Shown: positions 1,919-27,869 of the stretch, in pieces | How the letters are laid out: the number at the start of each line of letters is the position of its first letter | How positions within the stretch are numbered: the stretch's first letter is position 1 | Assembly (NCBI GenBank): GCA_007117675.1 | Contig: SKGB01000052.1 | Location: forward strand, 1 to 32,573 | Origin: Candidatus Nomurabacteria bacterium | GTDB taxonomy: Bacteria > Patescibacteriota > Minisyncoccia > Phycocordibacterales > CSBR16-119 | Direction of reading: 5' to 3' | Length of the DNA stretch: 32,573 nucleotides | Translations under genes and position numbers: made by a program | Notes under the pieces: generated by a model | Database searches by the model: none | What the model was told of the DNA's origin: nothing | What the model saw: only the letters and a program-made list of their open reading frames with translations

Positions 1919-2461
1919 ATGGAATCAGTAAAACAAAAAGATAAAAAAAGTTTTGATGCTTTAAAGGAAATCTACGGATACAAAAATAAAGCACAAGCAC
2001 CAGCACTTGAAAAAATTGTAATTTCAGTAGGTACTGGTAAAAAAGTTAAAGTAGATAAAAAGATTAATGAATTCATTGCGGATCGCCTTGCAAAAATAAC
2101 TGGACAAAAGCCATCTGTGCGACAAGCAAAAAAATCTAATGCTGGATTTAAATTACGAGAAGGTGAGCCAATTGGTCTTGCTGTAACTCTTCGTGGAAGT
2201 CGCATGTATAGTTTTTTGGATAAATTTATTCACATCGCCGTTCCTCGAACAAAAGACTTTCGAGGATTTAAACGTGAAGCTATTGATGCAATGGGCAATC
2301 TAACACTTGGTATTAAAGAACATACTATATTTCCAGAAACAGGAAATGAAGAACTCAAAGATGTATTTTCTTTTGCTATTACCTTTGTCACAACGGCAAA
2401 ATCGCGAGAAGAAGCAGAGCATTATTTTGATTTTATAGGACTGCCTTTCAAGAAAAAATAA
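1919..2461 (+). CDS. rplE: 50S ribosomal protein L5
   Basis: 180 aa with PALEKIVISVGTG, ITGQKP, AGFKLREGEPIGLAVTLRG, MYSFLDKF and PRTKDFRG, all L5 motifs. Confidence 0.95.
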   Translation: MESVKQKDKKSFDALKEIYGYKNKAQAPALEKIVISVGTGKKVKVDKKINEFIADRLAKITGQKPSVRQAKKSNAGFKLREGEPIGLAVTLRGSRMYSFLDKFIHIAVPRTKDFRGFKREAIDAMGNLTLGIKEHTIFPETGNEELKDVFSFAITFVTTAKSREEAEHYFDFIGLPFKKK

Positions 2462-2468
2462 AACATAA

Positions 2469-2516
2469 ACTCATATTACAAAAACCATCCGTTTGGATGG
2501 TTTTTGTAATATGAGT
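2469..2516 (+). terminator. Intrinsic terminator after rplE (perfect 22-bp stem, GTTT loop)
   Basis: ACTCATATTACAAAAACCATCC gttt GGATGGTTTTTGTAATATGAGT. The GC core CCATCC/GGATGG is flanked by an A-tract and a T-tract, so it could act in both directions. Confidence 0.8.
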
Positions 2517-2558
2517 ACGGCGAGTGTGGAAAACTAATATAATCTATCTTTTTTGCTT

Positions 2559-2564
2559 TATAAT
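2559..2564 (+). promoter_or_regulatory. -10 box TATAAT 6 nt upstream of the ATG at 2571 (candidate leaderless promoter)
   Basis: TATAAT at 2559-2564, then agatgt, then ATG. No SD-like purine run. Confidence 0.45.
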
Positions 2565-2570
2565 AGATGT

Positions 2571-3482
2571 ATGAATAAAAAATACACTATTCCTTTGATT
2601 ATGGGGGTAATCATATTTACTATATTTTTAATTATATTTAATTACAAAGACATCTCTCAAGACAAGCCAATTATTTCTTCGGATGGAACCGTCTCTGGCT
2701 TAGATTTGTCCCAAGCAACAAATAGTCAACTTGCCTTTGGTGGTGAGGCTGTTGATTTTCGTTTCCCGTATCATGGTGATTTTACTCAATACAGAGAAGT
2801 GTTCGGTCTCAGCGACACTTCTGCTTTTTTTGGTTTTGGTTTAGAGTCCTACACAAATGATTTACCCTCATCGTACAGTGCGGTTTCAGGTGCTGTTGAC
2901 GCCTTTGGATATCCAGTACGAAAAACATTTCTACACACTCAAGTAGAGCAAGAAAAACAAACACTCTCTGGTCAACAAAAAATTGCAAAACTTTTGAGCC
3001 CTCAAGCTGTACAGGCGTCTGTGGGAACTGTTATTCCTGGCACATCGTATATGCACGATGCTGATTTCCCTGGTTTGTATCACTGTAAAGAGTCTGAGGA
3101 AGATGAAAGTTACTTCTTGCTCTATTTTGAAGATGTTGCTTTATACGAGGCAGGGGAGGCTCCTCCTGTTGGTTTCGCAAGTCTTTCAAATGGAATTGAT
3201 AAAATACAAGCAACATGTGATGTCTTTGTTGAGTATGACCAAATGCTTAAAATAAATGACATGAACGTTCCGGTGAATCCTTCTATTGTATTTTATCGTT
3301 TTGAAAATCATCTTCCACCACAAGCTCTAGGTAATGCATCTTCTTTTTATTTAGATTTTGAAGATAACTTTAGTCACACCTTTTTACAGCAACATATAAC
3401 AAAAGGTATTCCTAATATACCGGGTATTTGGAATTTTGATGGGTACATTGATATTAACCACGCGATCCCTTGGAGCTTTTAA
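2571..3482 (+). CDS. Hypothetical protein with N-terminal membrane anchor
   Basis: Long ORF. MNKKYTIPLIMGVIIFTIFLIIFNY is a single N-terminal TM helix, and I recognise no family in the rest. The ORF-track start at 2553 is a TTG that overlaps the -10 box, so I prefer the ATG at 2571. The giant protease gene starts 23 nt downstream. Confidence 0.7.
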   Translation: MNKKYTIPLIMGVIIFTIFLIIFNYKDISQDKPIISSDGTVSGLDLSQATNSQLAFGGEAVDFRFPYHGDFTQYREVFGLSDTSAFFGFGLESYTNDLPSSYSAVSGAVDAFGYPVRKTFLHTQVEQEKQTLSGQQKIAKLLSPQAVQASVGTVIPGTSYMHDADFPGLYHCKESEEDESYFLLYFEDVALYEAGEAPPVGFASLSNGIDKIQATCDVFVEYDQMLKINDMNVPVNPSIVFYRFENHLPPQALGNASSFYLDFEDNFSHTFLQQHITKGIPNIPGIWNFDGYIDINHAIPWSF

Positions 3483-3505
3483 TTTAGATAATACTTATTG
3501 ATTAT

Positions 3506-6500
3506 ATGAAAAAAATTTACAAACAAATACATGATAAACAAAAAATAATCCTGTTTATTTTAATAGGAGTTATACTAGCTATTTTTTCTTTGCTGGTTTT
3601 TATTTCTCCAGCAGGTGCGCAACAGCGAGAATCTCGTAATATTGCTGGCTCATCTCAAAACACAAACTCTGTTATTGATCCTGATTTAGGTTATAATCCT
3701 GTCCAAGTACTTGTTAAACTTGCTCCAGAGCCCGCAATAAGAGCAAGGGAAAAAGAAACTGTTCGTTCTATTTCACGTACTGTTTTTAGGGATAGGTCTC
3801 TACAAAGACCTCAAGAGATTCGCAAGGTTTTTGATGCAAGAAATATTGAAAATCACGAAGTGTCTCGTTGGTTTACCTTTGATTTTAAAACAGCTGAAGA
3901 GGCAGAGCGTTTTATTGCTTCGTCTCGGTTGAATCCCTGGGTGCAATCTGTTGAGAGGGATGTGATTCAGAGTACTCAAATTGTACCTCAGGATGAATTT
4001 TTTCAAGAAGGATCTCCTGAATCTCTTTGGGGTCACGATTTGATTAACGTACAAGATCTTTGGAATGTCGTGGAAAATCCTGGTGAAGGCGTGATTGTTG
4101 CTGTCATTGATACCGGTGTTTCAAATGCGGGTGACCCCAACAATGAATGGACTCATCTCGATCTTTTGGGTTCTGAGTGGGTTGGCTCTGATGGTACAGT
4201 GCTCGGTTCTTCACCTTCTGCTATTGCTCCTGTTTGGGAAGATTATAATGGTCATGGTACTCATGTTGCAGGAACTATTGGTGCTAGAGCTAATGACTTT
4301 GGAATTCCTGGGATTGCTTTTGATTCAACCATAATGGCTTATAAGCTTTCAAATGGCGGAGGGTGGTTGAGCAGCACAAGTGCGGCGGGAATTATATATG
4401 CTGTTGATAATGGGGCCTCTATCATTAATGCCAGCTTTGGTGGAGTTAGGAATTCAATGACTGATGATGCTGTAAAATATGCCTTTGATAATGATGTTTT
4501 GTTTGTTGCAGCTGCTGGTAATGATTACGGTACTAATGTATGTAAAAAATCACCAGGTGGTTCAGAGTATGCTGTTGCGGTAAGTTCTGTTGATAAAAAT
4601 GCAAACATTTCTTCATTTTCAAATATTGGTACAGGGATTGATGTTGCTGCTCCTGGTGGTGGATTTACTGGGCCTGGGTCTCAACATAGAATATTGTCAA
4701 CAGCGACAAAGTCTCCGAATGGTATAGGGAGCCCTGTTGTGTCTTCACAAGGTGAACCATATACGGCAATAAATGGTACTTCTATGGCGACTCCTCATGT
4801 TGCCGCAGCAGCTGCAATCATCCGTCAACTTCGTCCTAATTGGAATGTTGAAGAGGTGTGGGCTGGTCTAAAGTTTATATCGCAGGAACCTGCTAGTTCC
4901 GTATATAATCAAGGTTTTGGTTATGGTCTTTTGGATATGTCAAAAATTCTTGATTTGCCGGAAACCATTCCTGTTGCTCAAATGTATGAACCGCAAAATT
5001 GTTATTCTCCTTCTGAGGCTGGGGTTGTAACAATTAAAGGTTCGGCTTATGTTTCAGGATCTTTTGTTCCTGATCAGATTAGAATTGAATTTGCTCAAGG
5101 TCACTCTGTATCAGATTCTGATTTCGAGTTACTTACCGTTGTTAATCAAGAGGTTACTGACGATGTGTTGTATGTATGGGATGCAACATCCTATCCACTT
5201 GGAAATTACACCCTTCGAGTTGTAACAGAGTTTGATGGTGTTACTGTGGAAGATAGAAATCAAATTTCTTTTATTCAGTATGATTATAAAACTGCATTAA
5301 GAATGTCTATTACTCGTATCTTGGGTTTTGACTCAATAATGCCAAGCTCTCCAGAGACATCACAAGGGTATGGTTTTGCACCCAAGTCATATTTCAATAG
5401 ATTTTTGCATGAATACAATGAAGAGACTGAAGAGTTTGTTCCTTTGGTTCAATACCCGACTGGTGAGTTTAACGGGGTGATTAATTACCCTAACCCGTCA
5501 CCGTCATTTACTTCAGACAATGTTTGGTATAAAGGCTTTGTACAATCTAATCTTGCCACTTATGAGCTTGAACCTATCCCTGTTTTGTCACCGGCTCAAT
5601 TTACACAAAGATCACTAGCTGGTTTTGATAATTCACGAACAGATGAAGTGTATTTAACATATCCTTTTCTAGAGATTGGTGAGCAAAAGAGTATTCATCC
5701 GCATGAAAAAGAAGTGTTGTGTCACCTTGGTTTTGCTGTAGAGGGTGCTTCTGAAATTTGTGAGCAGCATGTCCCTGTACCTGTTACTGATTTTGCGACT
5801 TTTAGTAATCAAAGTTCCTATTTGTGTCTTGTTCCGGGGTTAAATGATTTCTGGCTTGGGTTAAGACTCCTTACTAATTCGCAGGGAATAAATCCTGGCG
5901 CGGGTTCTCCTATTATAAAGAAAATTTTATTTGATAATACGGATACTGATATTGCAGGTGTTCAACTTGGTGCTATAAATTGCCCAGTCACCTTAACGAA
6001 CCCTTTTATTGGTGGTTTTATTTCTGATTTCTCAAGAAGAACAGTTTCTTTCTTCTTTAACGACAGCGTTGCCAGTTCTAAAGGGGCTCGATATGCAGTA
6101 ATGCACACAGATTCAAATTATTTACCAGAAACTTCGGAACGTAGAATAAGTCAGGATGGCCGTATTGTATTGTGGTTCTGTGAAAACCCTTACAATTACA
6201 TTTGTAATGGTAATTTTGAAAAAGGTATACCCTCACAGAATATTATAGATAGTGCATACTATCTAGGTAATCATTTATTACAAAGACTCACAGCAGATAA
6301 CTGGGCGTCTATGGGTACTGCTGATCTATATGTATCTGATATACCTGTTTCTGATTTTCCAGACTTGGGTATTCCATCAAGATGGTGGGGTCAGAATTTA
6401 CTGATAGAAGTGCCATTGGAAGTGGATCCTTATAACAGTCGTTTTGCTGGTTTTGCAAATACAACAAACATCTCTGCTGGTTCTGATCATAGAGAGGTGA

Positions 6501-9500
6501 TATTTACTCAACTTGGTCGTTCATTTGATATTGGTCAAGAATATCAAATTCGTTTTGATGTATGGTCATCGTCTGTTACCTCTAGTATTCCTGGTTATTC
6601 AGAATACACCTCTGACCCAAATATTGGTAAACATTTGTTATACATTGTTGGTAGTACTGATTCTTTCAATACATCTTCGCAAGTTTTGAATGAGGATGGT
6701 ACAGTAAACCTTTCTGTGTTTGATGAGGTTTTCTTCGAGTTAGATCTTGATGAGCAAGGTGCTTATGATGAATGGGTTACTGTAAGTACAAACTTCACTC
6801 CTCAAACTGAAAATATTTCCTATATCTATATTTTGTCTCATTCTGAAATTACAGATATGAGTGCGATGGTTGCGACCGGAAAAACAAAATATAGTCGTTA
6901 CACCAATCTTGACAACTTTATCGTTGAGCCACAACTCCCATATCGTGATTTACGAGTTGAGAAGGAAATGATTACGAGTAACCAGACAGTGATAGGGCAA
7001 GAAGTTTCTTTTGAAGTTGTTGTCACAAATGATAGTCAAGAGAGTATAGAAGAAGTAAAGGTTCAAGATTACTTACCGCAAGGTTTTGTATTGAGTAGCG
7101 CTGTTTCATCACAAGGCCAGGACTATACCTACAGCTCGCTTGAAAACATGATTTCATGGCAGGATATTACCTTGTCTGGAGGTGAATCCGTATCATTCAC
7201 TATCTCTGGTTCATTTACTGTATGTCAGGCGGAATTTAGAAATGTTGCAATTGCATATTCAAATCTGTATCTAGACGAAACACCAGAAAACAACTTTGTG
7301 GATGTGTATCGACAAGGTTTTCCTTTCAATGATGAAATTGACAACTACTCTGGTTTTGCTGGTGGAGAAATGGGTTGTGTTGGAGTTATTTCAGGGCGTG
7401 TCTTTGCTGACAACAATCAAAACCAAGTACAAGACTTAGGTGAAACAGGAATTGGTCAAATTGAAATTGGTTTGTACAAGCAAGAGCAAGATGGAACGCA
7501 TACCCTTGAACAAACTGTTTCTTCAAGTGTTCAAAATCTTGGGTTCTATAGTTTTAACCCTCAAAGTATGGGGACCTATGTGGTGAGTCTTATGACTCCA
7601 AATATGTTTAACATAACATTGCCTGATGATTCAGAGGTGTTCTTAAATGGGTCACTTGAAAACTATGTACTTAGTATGACAAACGGGGTTTCTTATACTG
7701 ATCGTAACTTTGGTATTATGCAAGGTCGTGTTGTTGAGGGGTTTGTGTATGAAGATAGTAATGTTAATGGTGTATATGATTTCGGAGAAGCTTTGTTGTC
7801 TGGTATTGATGTGGGGTTGTTCTGGGACGAGGGAGATGGATACTATACGTTTATAGATTCAGTTTTGACTGACAATGATGGTTTATATTCCTTCGTTCCC
7901 GATATTCAATATCTTGATGCAGATTTATTGCTTCGAGTTTATGTTCCTGGTGATACAAATATTCAAGCAATTACTCAACCTCTGTATTCAGCCCCTGTAG
8001 ACCATCCTAATCCAGTTTTTGTTGAAAATACATACAGTTTACCAGCAGGGCAACCTTCTGAATCACCTTATGCCTTTGGTGTTATCTATGAGGATATTAA
8101 TATTGTTGAAGAGGTTATGGTGAGGCCTGCAGGTACCGTCTACCAAGATGTTGATGTTAGTGGGTCATTTGATCCTTTTGTAGACGTTCGTCTTGGTGGG
8201 TATACAGTTAATTTATTTAAGAAACTATCTGATACAGAATATGAGTTAATCGCTCAACAAGAGAGTTTAGATAGTTCAGGTTTTTATAGTTTTGTTATTT
8301 CTTTATCTTATGGTGAATATTACTTAGTGATCGATGCACAGCATTTAGAAAATGCAGCAGTGTCTGTTCCTGATTCTCAAAACACAACCATAGAAAACTC
8401 ACCATATCACTATAGTTTTACAGTTGATGAGAATACCCCAAACGGACTTCTCTTGCCTGGAAATGACTTTGGCTTTATTTTTGACCAAACTGATGAGCCA
8501 ACTATGTTAATTCGTCCCAGCGGTGTTGTTTTCCAGGATGTTGACGCTGATGGTTTGTATGCTGTTTCTGATTTCCCACTGCCTGGTTATCGTGTTGATT
8601 TGTACAGACATTTAGATAGCGGTTCTTATGAGCTAATTGCCTCTGAGCAGTCAGGTGTTCAAGGAACTTATGCTTTTCAGATTATTGTCCCTTATGGTCA
8701 GTATTCTCTTGTTTTGCATCCTCAGCATATAGAAGATTCTGTTTTGTCTATACCTGAAGCTTCTCTTGATGTAATTGAAGGGTCTTCATATTACTACACT
8801 TTTATTGTTGATGGTAACCCACAAAACAGTAATACAAGTGATAACAACTTCGGATTTGTTCAAGAAGTCTGCTATCCTTTTGACTTAAATGGGGATGGAG
8901 TTGTGAATGCTGCAGATTTAGGGTCTTTTCTAGCTGCCTTGGGTACAACAGAATCTGAGTATGATTTTGATGGGAATGGTATTGTTGATCACCTTGATTT
9001 GATGATGATGGCATCCTATCTTGGGTGTTCTTCCGATATTGACGATGCTATATACAAGATAGGGGGTTTTGTTTTTGATGATTTGAATGAGAATGGACTA
9101 TTCGATGATTCTAACATTTTAACAGAAAGATATGCTGGTGTTATGGGTGTTCCGGTCTACTTGTATAAACAAAACCAAGATGGTTCGTATAATTTTGTTT
9201 CTCAAATGAATTCAAGTCCTGGTTTGGCACAGTCTTGGACTCAGGTGGTGGGCTCAAGTATTGTTTCTCACCCAGGTCTTACGGGTTCATACCTCTTCGA
9301 GGTTAATCAGCCGGGGAATTATGCTATCACGATTGATCCTGATTTTATTAATCAAGCAGGGTATTCTATTACACACCCTAATGCAAGTAGTCAAATTATT
9401 GGTGGTGCTCATAGGGTCCATTTTGTGACCTTAGAGCCAGCTCAGAGTGAGTTTGTTGTTTTCTTGGATAATAATTTTGGTCTTAATACTTGTGGGTGTT

Positions 9501-10063
9501 GGAATCATTTTGTGGGAAGCACTTGCTTGGTTGATTCTGATGATCTTCAGTACTTTAATAATGTTCTCTTTGGAAACGTGTGCGAGGAGGGGCAGTTTTG
9601 TCCAGGTGACTACACTCAAACTGGGCAGGTTGTAAATTCAGATTTACTATTCTTCCTCTCACATTATGGATGTTCAAAAGCAAATGCTAGTGCGTTCCCG
9701 AATTATTTTGAAGAAACTCAAGATATTTATTCTTATCTACCTCAAGGAGTTGATATGCTTAGCGATAATTTTTCATATAATAACGAAACAGGTTTTTATG
9801 AAAGAGTTGTCGTATTGGAAAATTCTAATAATGCTTCTGTTGGTGAGGTTCTTACATTTTTACCTAGTGGAGTTGTGCTTCATGGAATAAAGCCTGTTGG
9901 TCTAAGTTTACAGTTTGTAGATGTCCTTACTGACTCCCCTGATTACGCCTCAGCTCTGCCTGGTGTTTACAACCACGTTAATTCCAGAAACTTATTTGCG
10001 GTGCAGTTTTTACCTGCAAATGGTTCGGTGACATTGGTATTTCGTTTTACTGAGATTGAGTAA
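3506..10063 (+). CDS. Giant (2185 aa) membrane-anchored or secreted subtilisin-family (peptidase S8) multidomain surface protein
   Basis: An N-terminal hydrophobic anchor (ILFILIGVILAIFSLLVFISPAGA) is followed by a propeptide-like segment. S8 triad motifs are VIVAVIDTGV (Asp202), HGTHVAGTIGA (His250) and GTSMATPHVAAAAAII (Ser426). Downstream lie a DUF11-like segment (about 6949-7215), several Cna-B/SdrD-B-like modules (for example GRVFADNNQNQVQDLGETGIGQIEIGLY) and dockerin-like loops (DLNGDGVVNAADL and DFDGNGIVDHLDL). Confidence 0.9.
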   Translation: MKKIYKQIHDKQKIILFILIGVILAIFSLLVFISPAGAQQRESRNIAGSSQNTNSVIDPDLGYNPVQVLVKLAPEPAIRAREKETVRSISRTVFRDRSLQRPQEIRKVFDARNIENHEVSRWFTFDFKTAEEAERFIASSRLNPWVQSVERDVIQSTQIVPQDEFFQEGSPESLWGHDLINVQDLWNVVENPGEGVIVAVIDTGVSNAGDPNNEWTHLDLLGSEWVGSDGTVLGSSPSAIAPVWEDYNGHGTHVAGTIGARANDFGIPGIAFDSTIMAYKLSNGGGWLSSTSAAGIIYAVDNGASIINASFGGVRNSMTDDAVKYAFDNDVLFVAAAGNDYGTNVCKKSPGGSEYAVAVSSVDKNANISSFSNIGTGIDVAAPGGGFTGPGSQHRILSTATKSPNGIGSPVVSSQGEPYTAINGTSMATPHVAAAAAIIRQLRPNWNVEEVWAGLKFISQEPASSVYNQGFGYGLLDMSKILDLPETIPVAQMYEPQNCYSPSEAGVVTIKGSAYVSGSFVPDQIRIEFAQGHSVSDSDFELLTVVNQEVTDDVLYVWDATSYPLGNYTLRVVTEFDGVTVEDRNQISFIQYDYKTALRMSITRILGFDSIMPSSPETSQGYGFAPKSYFNRFLHEYNEETEEFVPLVQYPTGEFNGVINYPNPSPSFTSDNVWYKGFVQSNLATYELEPIPVLSPAQFTQRSLAGFDNSRTDEVYLTYPFLEIGEQKSIHPHEKEVLCHLGFAVEGASEICEQHVPVPVTDFATFSNQSSYLCLVPGLNDFWLGLRLLTNSQGINPGAGSPIIKKILFDNTDTDIAGVQLGAINCPVTLTNPFIGGFISDFSRRTVSFFFNDSVASSKGARYAVMHTDSNYLPETSERRISQDGRIVLWFCENPYNYICNGNFEKGIPSQNIIDSAYYLGNHLLQRLTADNWASMGTADLYVSDIPVSDFPDLGIPSRWWGQNLLIEVPLEVDPYNSRFAGFANTTNISAGSDHREVIFTQLGRSFDIGQEYQIRFDVWSSSVTSSIPGYSEYTSDPNIGKHLLYIVGSTDSFNTSSQVLNEDGTVNLSVFDEVFFELDLDEQGAYDEWVTVSTNFTPQTENISYIYILSHSEITDMSAMVATGKTKYSRYTNLDNFIVEPQLPYRDLRVEKEMITSNQTVIGQEVSFEVVVTNDSQESIEEVKVQDYLPQGFVLSSAVSSQGQDYTYSSLENMISWQDITLSGGESVSFTISGSFTVCQAEFRNVAIAYSNLYLDETPENNFVDVYRQGFPFNDEIDNYSGFAGGEMGCVGVISGRVFADNNQNQVQDLGETGIGQIEIGLYKQEQDGTHTLEQTVSSSVQNLGFYSFNPQSMGTYVVSLMTPNMFNITLPDDSEVFLNGSLENYVLSMTNGVSYTDRNFGIMQGRVVEGFVYEDSNVNGVYDFGEALLSGIDVGLFWDEGDGYYTFIDSVLTDNDGLYSFVPDIQYLDADLLLRVYVPGDTNIQAITQPLYSAPVDHPNPVFVENTYSLPAGQPSESPYAFGVIYEDINIVEEVMVRPAGTVYQDVDVSGSFDPFVDVRLGGYTVNLFKKLSDTEYELIAQQESLDSSGFYSFVISLSYGEYYLVIDAQHLENAAVSVPDSQNTTIENSPYHYSFTVDENTPNGLLLPGNDFGFIFDQTDEPTMLIRPSGVVFQDVDADGLYAVSDFPLPGYRVDLYRHLDSGSYELIASEQSGVQGTYAFQIIVPYGQYSLVLHPQHIEDSVLSIPEASLDVIEGSSYYYTFIVDGNPQNSNTSDNNFGFVQEVCYPFDLNGDGVVNAADLGSFLAALGTTESEYDFDGNGIVDHLDLMMMASYLGCSSDIDDAIYKIGGFVFDDLNENGLFDDSNILTERYAGVMGVPVYLYKQNQDGSYNFVSQMNSSPGLAQSWTQVVGSSIVSHPGLTGSYLFEVNQPGNYAITIDPDFINQAGYSITHPNASSQIIGGAHRVHFVTLEPAQSEFVVFLDNNFGLNTCGCWNHFVGSTCLVDSDDLQYFNNVLFGNVCEEGQFCPGDYTQTGQVVNSDLLFFLSHYGCSKANASAFPNYFEETQDIYSYLPQGVDMLSDNFSYNNETGFYERVVVLENSNNASVGEVLTFLPSGVVLHGIKPVGLSLQFVDVLTDSPDYASALPGVYNHVNSRNLFAVQFLPANGSVTLVFRFTEIE
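8117..8868 (+). repeat. Tandem in-frame duplication of a ~125-aa module inside the giant protease gene (8117-8503 and 8504-8868)
   Basis: The protein segments MVRPAGTVYQDVDVSGSFDPFVDVRLGGYTVNLFKKLSDTEYELIAQQ...NDFGFIF and MLIRPSGVVFQDVDADGLYAVSDFPLPGYRVDLYRHLDSGSYELIASEQ...NNFGFVQ align over their full length. They are diverged at the DNA level. Confidence 0.8.
8870..9028 (+). other. Dockerin-like double calcium-binding loop segment bracketed by two Cys residues (aa 1789-1841)
   Basis: CYPFDLNGDGVVNAADLGSFLAALGTTESEYDFDGNGIVDHLDLMMMASYLGC has two D-x-[ND]-G-[DN]-G-x-[VI]-[ND]-x-x-D-L repeats, as in type I dockerins. Confidence 0.6.
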
Positions 10064-10118: not shown

Positions 10119-10139
10119 ATTTCAGCTGTGTGGTATGTT
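10111..10139 (+). promoter_or_regulatory. Promoter for rplJ-rplL (TTGATT, 17-nt spacer containing TGn, TATGTT)
   Basis: TTGATT at 10111-10116. TGg plus TATGTT at 10131-10139. Confidence 0.55.
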
Positions 10140-10145
10140 TTTCAT

Positions 10146-10277
10146 GTAAGCCGTAGAGACAGTGGGCAGCCTTCAGGGGCGTCAGACCTACCGAATGGTC
10201 GACTCTTGTATCAAGGGAACTCTCAATACGAGGCTTATGTCGTTCGCGACCAGTTTTTAGTGTAATAAAAATAAAAA
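10146..10277 (+). ncRNA. Candidate L10(L12) autoregulatory leader upstream of rplJ
   Basis: A ~130-nt untranslated segment, clearly more GC-rich than the flanks. It has a long-range GGTCG (10197-10201) / CGACC (10246-10250) pairing followed by AGTTTTTAG. The position is the same as known rplJ leaders. Confidence 0.5.
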
Positions 10278-13229: not shown

Positions 13230-16586
<3,357 letters not shown>

Positions 16587-16675: not shown

Positions 16676-16786
16676 TCTAAGCTGGTGATTTGATGCTGGG
16701 GCCACACCTGTTCTCATTCCGAACACAGAAGTTAAGCCCAGTAATGCCGACGATACTATTGGGAAAATAGGTATTCGCCAGCTTAG
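16676..16786 (+). rRNA. rrf: 5S ribosomal RNA (ends approximate)
   Basis: Terminal helix CTAAGCTGGTG / CGCCAGCTTAG. Conserved core CCACACCTGTTCTCATTCCGAACACAGAAGTTAAGCCC. Confidence 0.92.
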
Positions 16787-16799
16787 AGTATTTAAAAAT

Positions 16800-16830
16800 A
16801 AAAAACACTTCACAAGAAGTGTTTTTTATT
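16800..16830 (+). terminator. Intrinsic terminator of the 23S-5S operon
   Basis: AAAAAACACTTC acaa GAAGTGTTTTTTATTTT. Confidence 0.85.
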
Positions 16831-16841
16831 TTACACTGTTA

Positions 16842-17004
16842 GCACATCCCATACTTGCTCGGGTTGAGGGTTTCCCTCAACAACAGCGGTCGCAACTATA
16901 ACGGTCCTAGGGATGTATGCAATCTGCGCGATAAGCGCCACATAAGTGAGCTGGTTCTTGTATTTCAAGAGCACGTCGGCCGTAACTAACGGTCCTAAGA
17001 TTGC
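16842..17004 (+). ncRNA. Candidate structured RNA: two tandem elements, each containing a 23S helix-69-like hairpin
   Basis: Element A (16844-16916) has closing stem ACATCCC/GGGATGT, hairpin GTTGAGGG ttt CCCTCAAC, and the H69-like hairpin GGTCGCAACTATAACGGTC (16888-16906). Element B (16919-17004) has closing stem GCAATCT/AGATTGC, hairpin GTTCTTG tattt CAAGAGC, and the H69-like hairpin GGCCGTAACTAACGGTC (16978-16994). The genuine H69 lies at 15237-15255. Function unknown. Confidence 0.5.
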
Positions 17005-17006
17005 GG

Positions 17007-17034
17007 CCCGCCACCTTGAGTGGCGGGTTTTTTG
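17007..17034 (+). terminator. Intrinsic terminator following the H69-like elements
   Basis: CCCGCCA ccttgag TGGCGGG followed by TTTTTT. Confidence 0.85.
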
Positions 17035-17047
17035 TTGGTAATTTAAG

Positions 17048-17056
17048 TGGTATAAT
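17048..17056 (+). promoter_or_regulatory. Extended -10 promoter TGGTATAAT 8 nt upstream of the ATG at 17065 (leaderless or near-leaderless)
   Basis: TGGTATAAT, then tatgtgca, then ATG. No SD. Confidence 0.55.
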
Positions 17057-17064
17057 TATGTGCA

Positions 17065-17838
17065 ATGACATGGTCAACAAAAAGAAAGTTTTTCTATATT
17101 GGAGGATTTATTATAATTCTTTTGTTTTTTCTTTTACTTATATTGCAACCACGAATTAACAAAGATTCAGACTGTTTTGATGGAATTCAAAATGGGTCTG
17201 AGACAGGTGTTGACTGTGGTGGGTCTTGTTTGAGATTTTGTGCAGACCAAGCCCTCGATTTGTCTACTCGGTGGTCTCGGGTGTTTCGTGTAATTCCAGG
17301 GCGTTACAATGTTGCTGCACTTGTAGAAAATCAAAATCAAGACGCTGCCATTGCTCGTATTTCCTATGAGTTTCGATTGTATGATGAAAATAATATTTTT
17401 ATTGCACGACGAAGCGGTGCAACATACATCCCTCCCAATGGTAGATTCTTAATCTTTGAGCCAGCCATTAGTACAGGTGATAGAATAGCGGTTCGATCTG
17501 ATTTTACTTTTACACAAAGACCTGATTGGTTGCAGGTTTTTGATACAATCCCAAATATCTCTGTCTCTGGGATAAGATCGCAGGATATTTTCTTGAAACC
17601 TCAAGTAACAGCGGTTGTGACAAATACTTCTACTACCGATTTATATGACATTGATGTTGCTGTTATTGTCTATGACGAGCAAGAAAATGTACTCACTACA
17701 AGTTTTACTTTTATTGAAGAGCTGTCTCGAGGTTTAGGGCATGATGTCTTTTTTACATGGCAAGAGCCGTTTTCAGAAGCACCTGCCAGAATAGAAGTGT
17801 TACCGTTTGTGAATGTTTATACAAGTAAAAGATTTTAA
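17065..17838 (+). CDS. Hypothetical membrane-anchored protein with Cys-rich motif
   Basis: 257 aa. An N-terminal TM helix (FFYIGGFIIILLFFLLLIL) is followed by CFDGIQNGSETGVDCGGSCLRFC. The rest has no family I recognise. The SEDS gene starts 5 nt after its stop. Confidence 0.7.
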   Translation: MTWSTKRKFFYIGGFIIILLFFLLLILQPRINKDSDCFDGIQNGSETGVDCGGSCLRFCADQALDLSTRWSRVFRVIPGRYNVAALVENQNQDAAIARISYEFRLYDENNIFIARRSGATYIPPNGRFLIFEPAISTGDRIAVRSDFTFTQRPDWLQVFDTIPNISVSGIRSQDIFLKPQVTAVVTNTSTTDLYDIDVAVIVYDEQENVLTTSFTFIEELSRGLGHDVFFTWQEPFSEAPARIEVLPFVNVYTSKRF

Positions 17839-27746: not shown

Positions 27747-27780
27747 AAAACAAAACCCCTCTCCTGAGGGGTTTTGTTTT
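27747..27780. terminator. Bidirectional intrinsic terminator between the nitroreductase gene (+) and tRNA-Ser (-)
   Basis: AAAACCCCT ctcctg AGGGGTTTT flanked by A and T tracts. Confidence 0.8.
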
Positions 27781-27869
27781 GGCGGAGAGTGAGGGATTCG
27801 AACCCTCGATATGATTTCTCATATACTCGCGTTCCAGGCGAGCCCGTTCAACCACTCTGGCAACTCTCC
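27780..27869 (-). tRNA. tRNA-Ser (anticodon GGA), CCA encoded
   Basis: The reverse complement is GGAGAGTTGCCAGAGTGGTTGAACGGGCTCGCCTGGAACGCGAGTATATGAGAAATCATATCGAGGGTTCGAATCCCTCACTCTCCGCCA. It has a 7-bp acceptor stem, anticodon stem CTCGC/GCGAG with loop CTGGAAC, a long variable arm, and T arm GAGGG-TTCGAAT-CCCTC. Confidence 0.95.

Follow-up and report, generated by a model that had tools for sequence, protein, structure and literature searches.

Helix 69 (H69) of 23S ribosomal RNA (rRNA) is the central intersubunit bridge of the ribosome and is contacted by tRNAs, release and recycling factors, modification enzymes and several antibiotics. In the rRNA-mimicking leaders (the L10 leader, RF00557; the L20 leader; and the 23S-methyl motif, RF01065), a short RNA copies a piece of rRNA to bind a ribosome factor, while 6S RNA, a mimic of the open promoter, and the sponge 3'ETS-leuZ are small stable RNAs that imitate or soak up a partner. 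Here, we describe a cassette with likeness to both, located directly downstream of the 5S rRNA gene in a 32,573-nucleotide (nt) contig of a Candidatus Nomurabacteria bacterium (SKGB01000052.1; the whole contig is called the window) and containing two copies of H69 outside the 23S gene; 3'ETS-leuZ, like this cassette, derives from the tail of a stable-RNA operon. The comparisons reported below argue that the cassette is genuine: a conserved, structured RNA element that arose from 23S H69 and has so far gone undescribed. To a preliminary description, made from the letters of the window, they add the patchy presence of the cassette, the horizontal exchange of its alleles and an antisense H69 16-mer in uncultivated phages.

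Origin and fold of the two H69 copies

The core TAACGGTCCTA occurs exactly three times in the window, in the 23S gene and in the two copies, A and B; all three had been reported in the preliminary description and were confirmed:

15237-15255, + strand: genuine 23S H69 (E. coli 1906-1924), source of the copied sequence, inside the large-subunit (LSU) rRNA match; GGCCGTAACTATAACGGTC
16888-16906, + strand: copy A of H69; GGTCGCAACTATAACGGTC
16978-16994, + strand: copy B of H69; GGCCGTAACTAACGGTC

In local alignments, copy A was identical to 23S 15236-15261 at 23 of 26 positions, with 16 contiguous bases in common, and copy B aligned with 23S 15234-15266 over 33 columns with two mismatches and a single 2-nt gap, which bears out both the 16-nt identity of A and the loss of two loop nucleotides from B. 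Because the B alignment spans 33 columns, the 3' strand of its closing stem, AGATTGC, is itself 23S-derived (from AGGTAGC). The chance expectation of a shared 16-mer in the 32.6-kb window is ~1e-5 by our own arithmetic; we judge that the 16-mer shared with 23S inside the window cannot be fortuitous. The preliminary description had proposed a covariance model of A and B together; a model built from module A found the B copies (E values from 1e-7 to 5e-5) as well as the genuine 23S sequence at 15199-15265 (E 3e-6, 27 bits), a stretch made up of the short tip of helix 68 (H68), a linker, H69 and then CUAAGGUAGC. These matches agree with A and B being paralogues from that segment. The two modules look like tandem paralogues of a captured ~65-nt piece of 23S that begins at the H68 tip, includes H69 and ends near position 1934, with a newly acquired closing stem.

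The region from 16809 to 17035 is predicted to open with a promoter-like site, continue through modules A and B and close with a terminator. These parts, with the terminator that overlaps them upstream, are as follows (bp, base pairs):

16796-16827, + strand: terminator 1, an A run, a 7-bp hairpin (ACACTTC/GAAGTGT) and a T run, read by eye
16809-16837, + strand: promoter-like site from the promoter scan, TTCACA, 17 nt, TACACT, then 6 nt to the first base of A
16844-16916, + strand: module A, a three-way junction in the minimum-free-energy fold
16844-16850 with 16910-16916, + strand: closing stem P1 of A, 7 bp (ACATCCC/GGGATGT)
16857-16859 with 16885-16887, + strand: P2a of A
16863-16870 with 16874-16881, + strand: P2b of A
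16888-16892 with 16902-16906, loop 16893-16901, + strand: H69-like hairpin P3 of A
16907-16909, + strand: CUA linker of A
16919-17004, + strand: module B, from the minimum-free-energy fold, alignment, pair counts and consensus fold of the core
16919-16925 with 16998-17004, + strand: closing stem P1 of B, 7 bp (GCAATCT/AGATTGC)
16926-16929 with 16935-16938, + strand: small hairpin of B
16939-16977, + strand: 39-nt lineage-specific insertion of B, containing a hairpin at 16954-16960 with 16966-16972 (GTTCTTG/CAAGAGC)
16978-16983 with 16989-16994, + strand: H69-like hairpin of B, its loop 2 nt shorter
16995-16997, + strand: CUA linker of B
17005-17035, + strand: terminator 2, a 10-bp G+C-rich hairpin (17005-17029) and a T run, from the terminator scan

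The hairpins and 7-bp closing stems claimed for both modules were present in the minimum-free-energy folds, whose energies gave z-scores against shuffled sequences of -3.2 for A, -4.1 for B and -4.4 for A, B and terminator 2 combined. Terminator 1 was not listed by the terminator scan although it is visible in the sequence, and the -35-like TTCACA (16809-16814) sits in its loop and 3' arm. The common architecture proposed for the two modules holds for the closing stem and the H69-like hairpin, but not for GTTCTTG/CAAGAGC, which belongs to an insertion found only in the forms of the window and of one relative (L019, below).

Conservation, covariation and exchange among relatives

Relatives were gathered from public assemblies via homologues of the 257-amino-acid (257-aa) protein encoded downstream of the cassette. 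Downstream of 5S, where the preliminary description had suggested looking, the cassette was present with a conserved fold in four Paceibacteria lineages: the window with four near-identical strains (L001-L004, a few substitutions in the cassette), and three diverged lineages, L019 (with L020), L017 and L024, in which it likewise follows 5S directly. The H69-like loop of A, AACTATAA, was invariant across the four, including the uridine equivalents of 1915 and 1917. In B, 23 of the 24 nt of the core CGTAACTAACGGTnCTAAGATT (listed at 16981-17002) were constant and one was variable; the equivalents of uridines 1911 and 1915 were invariant, and the 2-nt loop deletion and a G-to-A change (AAGAT) were kept in all lineages.

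Around these fixed elements, the stems changed in a compensatory manner. The accessory hairpin of A, GTTGAGGG/CCCTCAAC, became GCTGGGAA/TTCCCAGC in L017, and its closing stem ACATCCC/GGGATGT became ACATTCT/AGAATGT in L024; the closing stem of B went from GCAATCT/AGATTGC to GTAATCT/AGATTAC in L017, a single compensatory pair. All four lineages have terminator 2, whose stem has likewise varied without loss of pairing (CCCGCCAC/GTGGCGGG versus CCTGCCAC/GTGGCAGG). Pairs in module A were counted on a covariance-model-fitted alignment of five sequences (window, L001, L019, L017 and L024), in which 94.6% of cells were paired. Six pairs had changed on both sides, a number matched by 4 of 500 shuffles, and nine cells had done so, matched by none of the 500. 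The covariation score was 0.339 against 0.230 for the shuffles (0/500 reached it) and 0.08-0.18 for slid controls, and RNAalifold returned the same 23 A pairs from an unfitted MAFFT alignment. For B, the H69-like stem P3 carried three one-sided changes, all wobble-compatible, with no broken cells, and two end pairs of the closing stem were broken, each in single lineages. A small 4-bp hairpin lies within two bases of the B closing stem in all four lineages, in a register that differs between the long and short forms of B; it is thus not column-homologous. The preliminary argument from covariation for a selected RNA fold is upheld by these orthologue changes, which fall in P1 and the accessory hairpin of A and in one pair of B P1.

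The copies might instead be neutral debris, short pieces of 23S pseudogene that recombination or intron mobility left behind and whose similarity persists through youth or gene conversion. Their derivation from 23S over 33 columns (B) and 26 columns (A), with the genuine copy just 1.6 kb upstream, would suit such an origin. RodA identity among the carrier lineages, however, was 67-80% (93.6% for L019 against L024, 67-70% for the window against the others), and four-fold codon sites of the window were 35-44% identical to those of the other lineages, that is, saturated. The cassette predates these splits, while the spacer between terminator 2 and the gene has diverged past alignment (33-45% identity). 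Since all lineages share the B deletion and G-to-A change, the copies have not been overwritten by gene conversion. With flanking, non-23S stems that covary and a loop and core that are (nearly) constant where synonymous sites are saturated, the pseudogene candidate was rejected; the view that the copies are not plain pseudogene scraps has held, and we regard the debris explanation as already largely refuted and scarcely credible.

Presence of the cassette was patchy. L018, L026 and L028 share the synteny and have 5S, one terminator and the gene without a cassette, while L005/L006, L027, L029 and L117 (reached via P0002, P0009, P0011 and P0017) have no rRNA operon upstream of the 257-aa gene; the L025 contig (P0007) stops inside terminator 2 and is uninformative. 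Terminator 1 was identical or nearly so in every cassette-bearing locus and different in the loci that lack the cassette. RodA makes sisters of L019 and L024 (93.6%), with the window as outgroup (67%), whereas the cassette places L019 with the window. These last two were 98.6% identical over aligned columns of module A and both carry a long B, while L024 has a diverged A (73% identical to L019) and a short B, as does L017. By segment, identity between the window and L019 was 61% in the 23S-5S spacer, 95% in terminator 1 and promoter, 95% in A, 89% in B, 80% in terminator 2 and 45% beyond terminator 2, where L019 was 74% identical to L024. The segment identities and the discordant phylogeny show replacement of a ~250-bp piece between distant lineages. 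With the pattern of presence and absence, this exchange marks the cassette as an accessory, exchangeable module, confined, as far as sampled, to a small Paceibacteria clade.

This exchange could also reflect events at the DNA level, with the copies serving as decoy, relic or recombination hot spot of a homing endonuclease that reads H69-coding DNA; cleavage and repair would account for horizontal transfer and phylogenetically discordant alleles. In the Candidate Phyla Radiation (CPR), rRNA insertions with LAGLIDADG enzymes are common and cluster at 23S 1917 and 1931 (PMC11270868). The B deletion lies at 1916-1918 and the B substitutions flank 1931; the window's own 23S gene holds a group I intron at ~2593. 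Against this stand the compensatory changes and G-U pairs in stems outside any endonuclease site, which indicate selection on an RNA fold. As an I-CeuI-type LAGLIDADG site, A diverges after CCTA and retains 17 of 26 site bases (our own count), and B carries a 2-bp deletion inside the site. The open reading frames (ORFs) of the window showed no endonuclease domain, and no endonuclease or recombinase gene was found in its 32 kb. A homing site fits poorly with the RNA-type covariation and G-U pairs; we hold a link to homing endonucleases as an improbable, minority view, although it might contribute to cassette exchange.

The + strand, we infer, is the functional one: G-U pairs occupy 14 of the 111 cells in A and would be C-A mismatches on the opposite strand, and the T run of terminator 2 exists on the + strand only. 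The arrangement TTCACA-17-TA[C/T/G]A[C/A]T-6 nt-purine of the A closing stem is common to the window, L001, L019, L017 and L024, and TTCACA is not found in the 5S terminators of loci without the cassette. With this geometry, transcription would be expected to begin where A begins, at its first base, which suggests a separate + strand RNA. A putative small RNA of ~190 nt (~130 nt in L017 and L024) would be the simplest reading; a terminator, conserved structure and conserved promoter-like geometry suggest a candidate independent small-RNA gene. The preliminary description had the copies parked between two terminators; both terminators are there, but the cassette looks more like a transcription unit of its own. 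The 257-aa gene has its own promoter:

17051-17067, + strand: own promoter of the 257-aa gene, TATAAT 8 nt before the ATG

In all orthologues of this gene, with or without the cassette, GGTATAAT or GGTATACT lies 6-9 nt upstream of the ATG. With TATAAT so close to the start codon, the 257-aa mRNA would be leaderless and the cassette not its leader; a riboswitch or leader of the gene was rejected on this ground, TATAAT being 3' of terminator 2 and the arrangement being kept in cassette-less loci.

Alternatively, the cassette may be a 3' trailer of the rRNA operon, transcribed by read-through of a weak terminator 1 and with a role in cis in 50S assembly or in the processing of 23S and 5S, such as that of a transient replacement for H69. 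Terminator 1 is indeed a short A/T-rich hairpin, the cassette always lies directly 3' of 5S, and rRNA operons commonly end in tandem terminators behind 5S, as with T1-T2 of E. coli rrnB. The absence of the cassette from L018, L026 and L028, however, makes it dispensable for rRNA maturation, and the conserved -35/-10 geometry, directed at the 5' end of A, suggests that transcription starts separately. We consider a trailer decidedly unlikely.

Known families did not account for the cassette. The best Rfam 15 match in the cassette region, sraL, lay on the opposite strand and scored 24.6 bits where its threshold is 39, the others being terminator look-alikes; the orthologous loci gave none at E<=1e-3, and the Rfam tRNA model gave none in 16780-17060 even at E<=10. 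The earlier statement that the motif is undescribed agrees with these searches, as do literature searches, in which neither an H69-mimic RNA nor the viral motif treated below turned up. Other candidates were rejected individually: a tRNA or tRNA-like element (ARAGORN and Rfam empty; a 3-nt linker between hairpin and closing stem); a guide RNA of a mobile element, such as an IS110 bridge RNA or TnpB/IscB omega RNA (the neighbours are 5S, a membrane protein, RodA, FolD, PAP2 and SecDF); an integron attC site (core motifs unfit); an H/ACA or C/D guide RNA on the - strand (no boxes; complementarity continuous, not bipartite); and a conserved peptide from the 10-codon ORF at 16913 over the A-B junction (MYAICAISAT; orthologue lengths differ and changes are mostly non-synonymous).

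Searches beyond these relatives gave no further cassette. Among GTDB representative genomes, two TAACGGTCCTA cores 62-92 nt apart occurred at 10 loci, none a homologue; L008 and L014 were scaffold-join duplications inside 23S genes, L010, L012 and L013 were unrelated tandem repeats, and L007 was a masked stretch. At this last locus (5990-6110, - strand, Anaerolineales), two I-CeuI-site-like stretches lie either side of an N run, outside rRNA genes and adjoining a putative tRNA gene start, as read by eye. In JGI metagenome contigs, the B-core pattern matched only three genuine 23S genes with an H69 loop 2 nt shorter. These otherwise normal genes, in L021 (155-174), L022 (945-964) and L023 (837-856, CPR-like), read GGCCGTAACTAACGGTCC; the loop deletion is that of module B and may represent sequencing error or a real variant. 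Separately, the cassette-less L018 (~180-545), L026 (~180-590) and L028 (~160-575) carry a 330-400-nt insert in the 23S-5S spacer with conserved blocks and covarying hairpins, such as gcgccaggtttcttacctggag, gcgctctgattcgtcagagag and gcgtcaactttcgggttgaag; it had no Rfam match at E<=1e-3.

The host of the window is a low-G+C (~37%) CPR member, and the closest named relatives of the window's proteins are from Candidatus Paceibacterota and Nomurabacteria. Its rRNA operon is 23S-5S with a spacer of 104 nt, and the window is without a 16S gene. The surrounding gene order is as follows:

1919-10063: ribosomal-protein run L16, S17, L14, L24, L5, then a 309-aa protein and a 2185-aa protein
after the 2185-aa gene: L10, L7/L12 and two small genes, then 23S and 5S
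13240-16576, + strand: 23S rRNA (LSU rRNA match)
16681-16783, + strand: 5S rRNA
3' of the cassette: the 257-aa membrane-protein gene, RodA, FolD, PAP2, SecDF

The 309-aa protein after L5 belongs to a family without assignment, and the usual S14, S8 and L6 genes are not in this place; the 2185-aa protein has, by eye and without domain search, the look of a subtilase-type surface protease. Within the 23S gene (15920-16282), near E. coli ~2593 and an I-CreI-type site, lies a group I intron of ~360 nt without an ORF, which Rfam Intron_gpI scored at 37 bits, below its gathering score of 50. ARAGORN found a single tRNA gene in the window, tRNA-Ser at 27780-27869, and nothing tRNA-like in the cassette region.

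H69 16-mers in viral contigs

The H69 16-mer AACTATAACGGTCCTA was found in 75 IMG/VR contigs (L030-L104), 72 of them outside a 23S context by one simple test, namely that the sequence downstream does not continue as 23S. Comparison 16-mers were much rarer: the sarcin-ricin loop occurred in 12 viral contigs (8 outside 23S context, 6 distinct), the I-CreI site in 8 (5 outside, 4 distinct) and a shuffled H69 16-mer in none. That the sarcin-ricin loop and I-CreI 16-mers are not enriched as H69 is speaks further against the endonuclease explanation considered above. The viral 16-mers fall into ~20-25 sequence families, and in most of these the motif lies 15-36 nt past the stop codon of an opposite-strand gene and is followed by an intrinsic terminator on that strand. 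With the motif antisense after stop codons, phage mRNAs would carry H69 antisense. Genes preceding the motif include nrdA, a by-eye capsid-like protein and others. Example sites are:

L034, 1314-1329, - strand: H69 16-mer
L046, 7370-7385: H69 16-mer
L039, 3806-3821: H69 16-mer
L055 and L036: further examples

In 34 contigs, a hairpin loop GTAGCGAA (23S 1930-1937) was located 15-45 nt from the motif in permuted order, with stems that vary and a loop that is constant. One viral family has 31 contiguous 23S-like bases with G1930A, a change also seen in module B, and the family of L033 and L071 continues GGGTTGT where A has GGGATGT. The covariance model of A scored weakly on the viral loci (~20 bits), and patterns specific to A or to B gave zero matches in the viral contigs. 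Rfam held no family covering the viral motif sites, BLAST against cultured phage genomes returned only contaminating 23S genes, and the antisense target TTATAGTT, sought in the window, gave nothing above chance. The viral modules and the cassette are, to judge by these comparisons, not the same element, and together they point to extra-ribosomal use of H69 on both phage and host sides.

A phage attP site was rejected as an explanation of the viral motif, since the adjoining genes (nrdA, capsid-like and others) included no integrase by inspection, without domain search. At least the L048/L065/L094 type was discounted as non-rRNA context because it is probably a reduced LSU-like RNA. In L048 (10950-11400; also in L065 and L094), a ~450-nt structured RNA with many GNRA-type hairpins lies on a tRNA-rich, viral-classed contig; it begins AACTATAACGGTCCTAAGGTAGTCC then CACGAACGGC, looks like a heavily reduced LSU domain IV and has no Rfam match. 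In addition, L030 (~10128-10152) and L035 contain a perfect 25-nt I-CeuI-type site, AACTATAACGGTCCTAAGGTAGCGA, with no flanking 23S sequence.

Proposed function and relation to known RNAs

We tentatively read the cassette as a self-contained + strand small-RNA gene acting as an H69-mimic decoy, a reading to which we give slightly less than even confidence. In this model, a sigma-70-type promoter overlapping the 5S terminator would start the RNA at ~16844 and terminator 2 would end it; the closing stem and accessory hairpin of each module would form a scaffold displaying the H69-like hairpin and CUA(AG), and the RNA would act as a molecular mimic, competing with ribosomal H69 for a reader of the H69 loop and its 3' flank. 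The decoy action is one that we infer from the pattern of conservation: a scaffold that varies around a fixed H69 loop and 3' flank is the signature of a display device, and it is on this ground that we read the RNA as a mimic. Base pairing, or a factor that reads sequence, is favored over pure shape mimicry, since constancy in B extends beyond the hairpin and the A stem weakens while its loop stays fixed.

For the putative ligand, a complementary nucleic acid, for example the phage antisense-H69 RNAs, is a possibility that we entertain with reserve. An H69-binding protein or enzyme (RluD, RlmH, RRF or HflX-type) is on the doubtful side, some other partner is somewhat unlikely, and the 30S decoding site, as in bridge B2a, is a long shot. 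The cassette could also be a binding platform or titrator devoted to an H69-specific protein of the kinds just named, and not to nucleic acid. In favor of this, uridine equivalents (1915/1917 in A, 1911/1915 in B) are invariant, and RluD, one of the few rRNA-modification enzymes kept across CPR (PMC12641178), remains a candidate. No such gene is linked to the cassette, however, the A stem degrades in two lineages while the loop is fixed, and constancy in B extends into CUAAGAUU, beyond the need of a hairpin-binding protein; we consider a protein platform unlikely.

The phage modules allow a more specific version of the decoy model, in which the cassette would be the host side of an RNA-RNA conflict over H69. 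Perfect antisense copies of the H69 loop and 3' strand, which many phages have in hairpins where well-expressed genes end, often with a second loop antisense to 23S 1930-1937, could dock on or trap the H69 of free 50S subunits or nascent 23S rRNA, and the two sense loops of the cassette would act as a kissing sponge that protects ribosomes. A sponge defense would explain a cassette that is patchy and horizontally exchanged, like defense genes. We regard this version as highly improbable.

Several observations weigh against the decoy model. TACACT and TAGACT are weak -10 boxes, transcripts from the rRNA promoter may read through into the cassette, and its own transcription is deduced from sequence. 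The covariation statistics are thin, with four independent lineages and three of the five sequences close to one another, and B taken singly is not significant with five sequences (106/500 shuffles). The H69-like stem of A is weak in L017 and L024, with one broken pair (A-C, A-G), which would not be expected of a faithful structural mimic. Sequence embedded in a hairpin makes a poor sponge unless binding begins loop to loop, and the viral contigs are without any link to Paceibacteria hosts. RluD acts poorly on isolated H69 fragments, which weakens the protein-decoy version.

As a conserved, free-standing RNA with two H69 look-alikes, the cassette would have no known forerunner among stand-alone small RNAs in imitating a functional LSU helix, and it would open a view on ribosome tuning or protection in CPR bacteria with pared-down ribosome biogenesis. 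The dozens of phage contigs with exact antisense after stop codons suggest that H69 is a target or tool in phage-host biology. Even with a modest function, the cassette is a new RNA family: its boundaries are clear, its fold can be tested, and natural variants with and without it exist.

The rRNA-mimicking leaders form part of the 5' leader of their target gene. The cassette, in contrast, lies between terminators, carries a promoter-like site of its own and precedes a leaderless gene that has a separate promoter. It copies H69, a helix not known to be bound by any ribosomal protein, and it has no match to the Rfam leader families. It has no sequence or structural similarity to 6S RNA or 3'ETS-leuZ, and what it mimics is an intersubunit-bridge helix. 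With genuine 23S H68-69, A and B share sequence, but their closing stems are novel: ribosomal 1928-1934 has other pairing partners. Unlike the genuine 23S or I-CeuI-type site, the copies lie in non-rRNA sequence, and neither keeps the full homing site. The viral antisense-H69 modules share with the cassette the same 16-mer outside rRNA, in hairpins beside a terminator, but their expressed strand is the H69 complement, 15-36 nt past a stop codon and often with the GTAGCGAA loop, whereas the cassette displays the sense strand.

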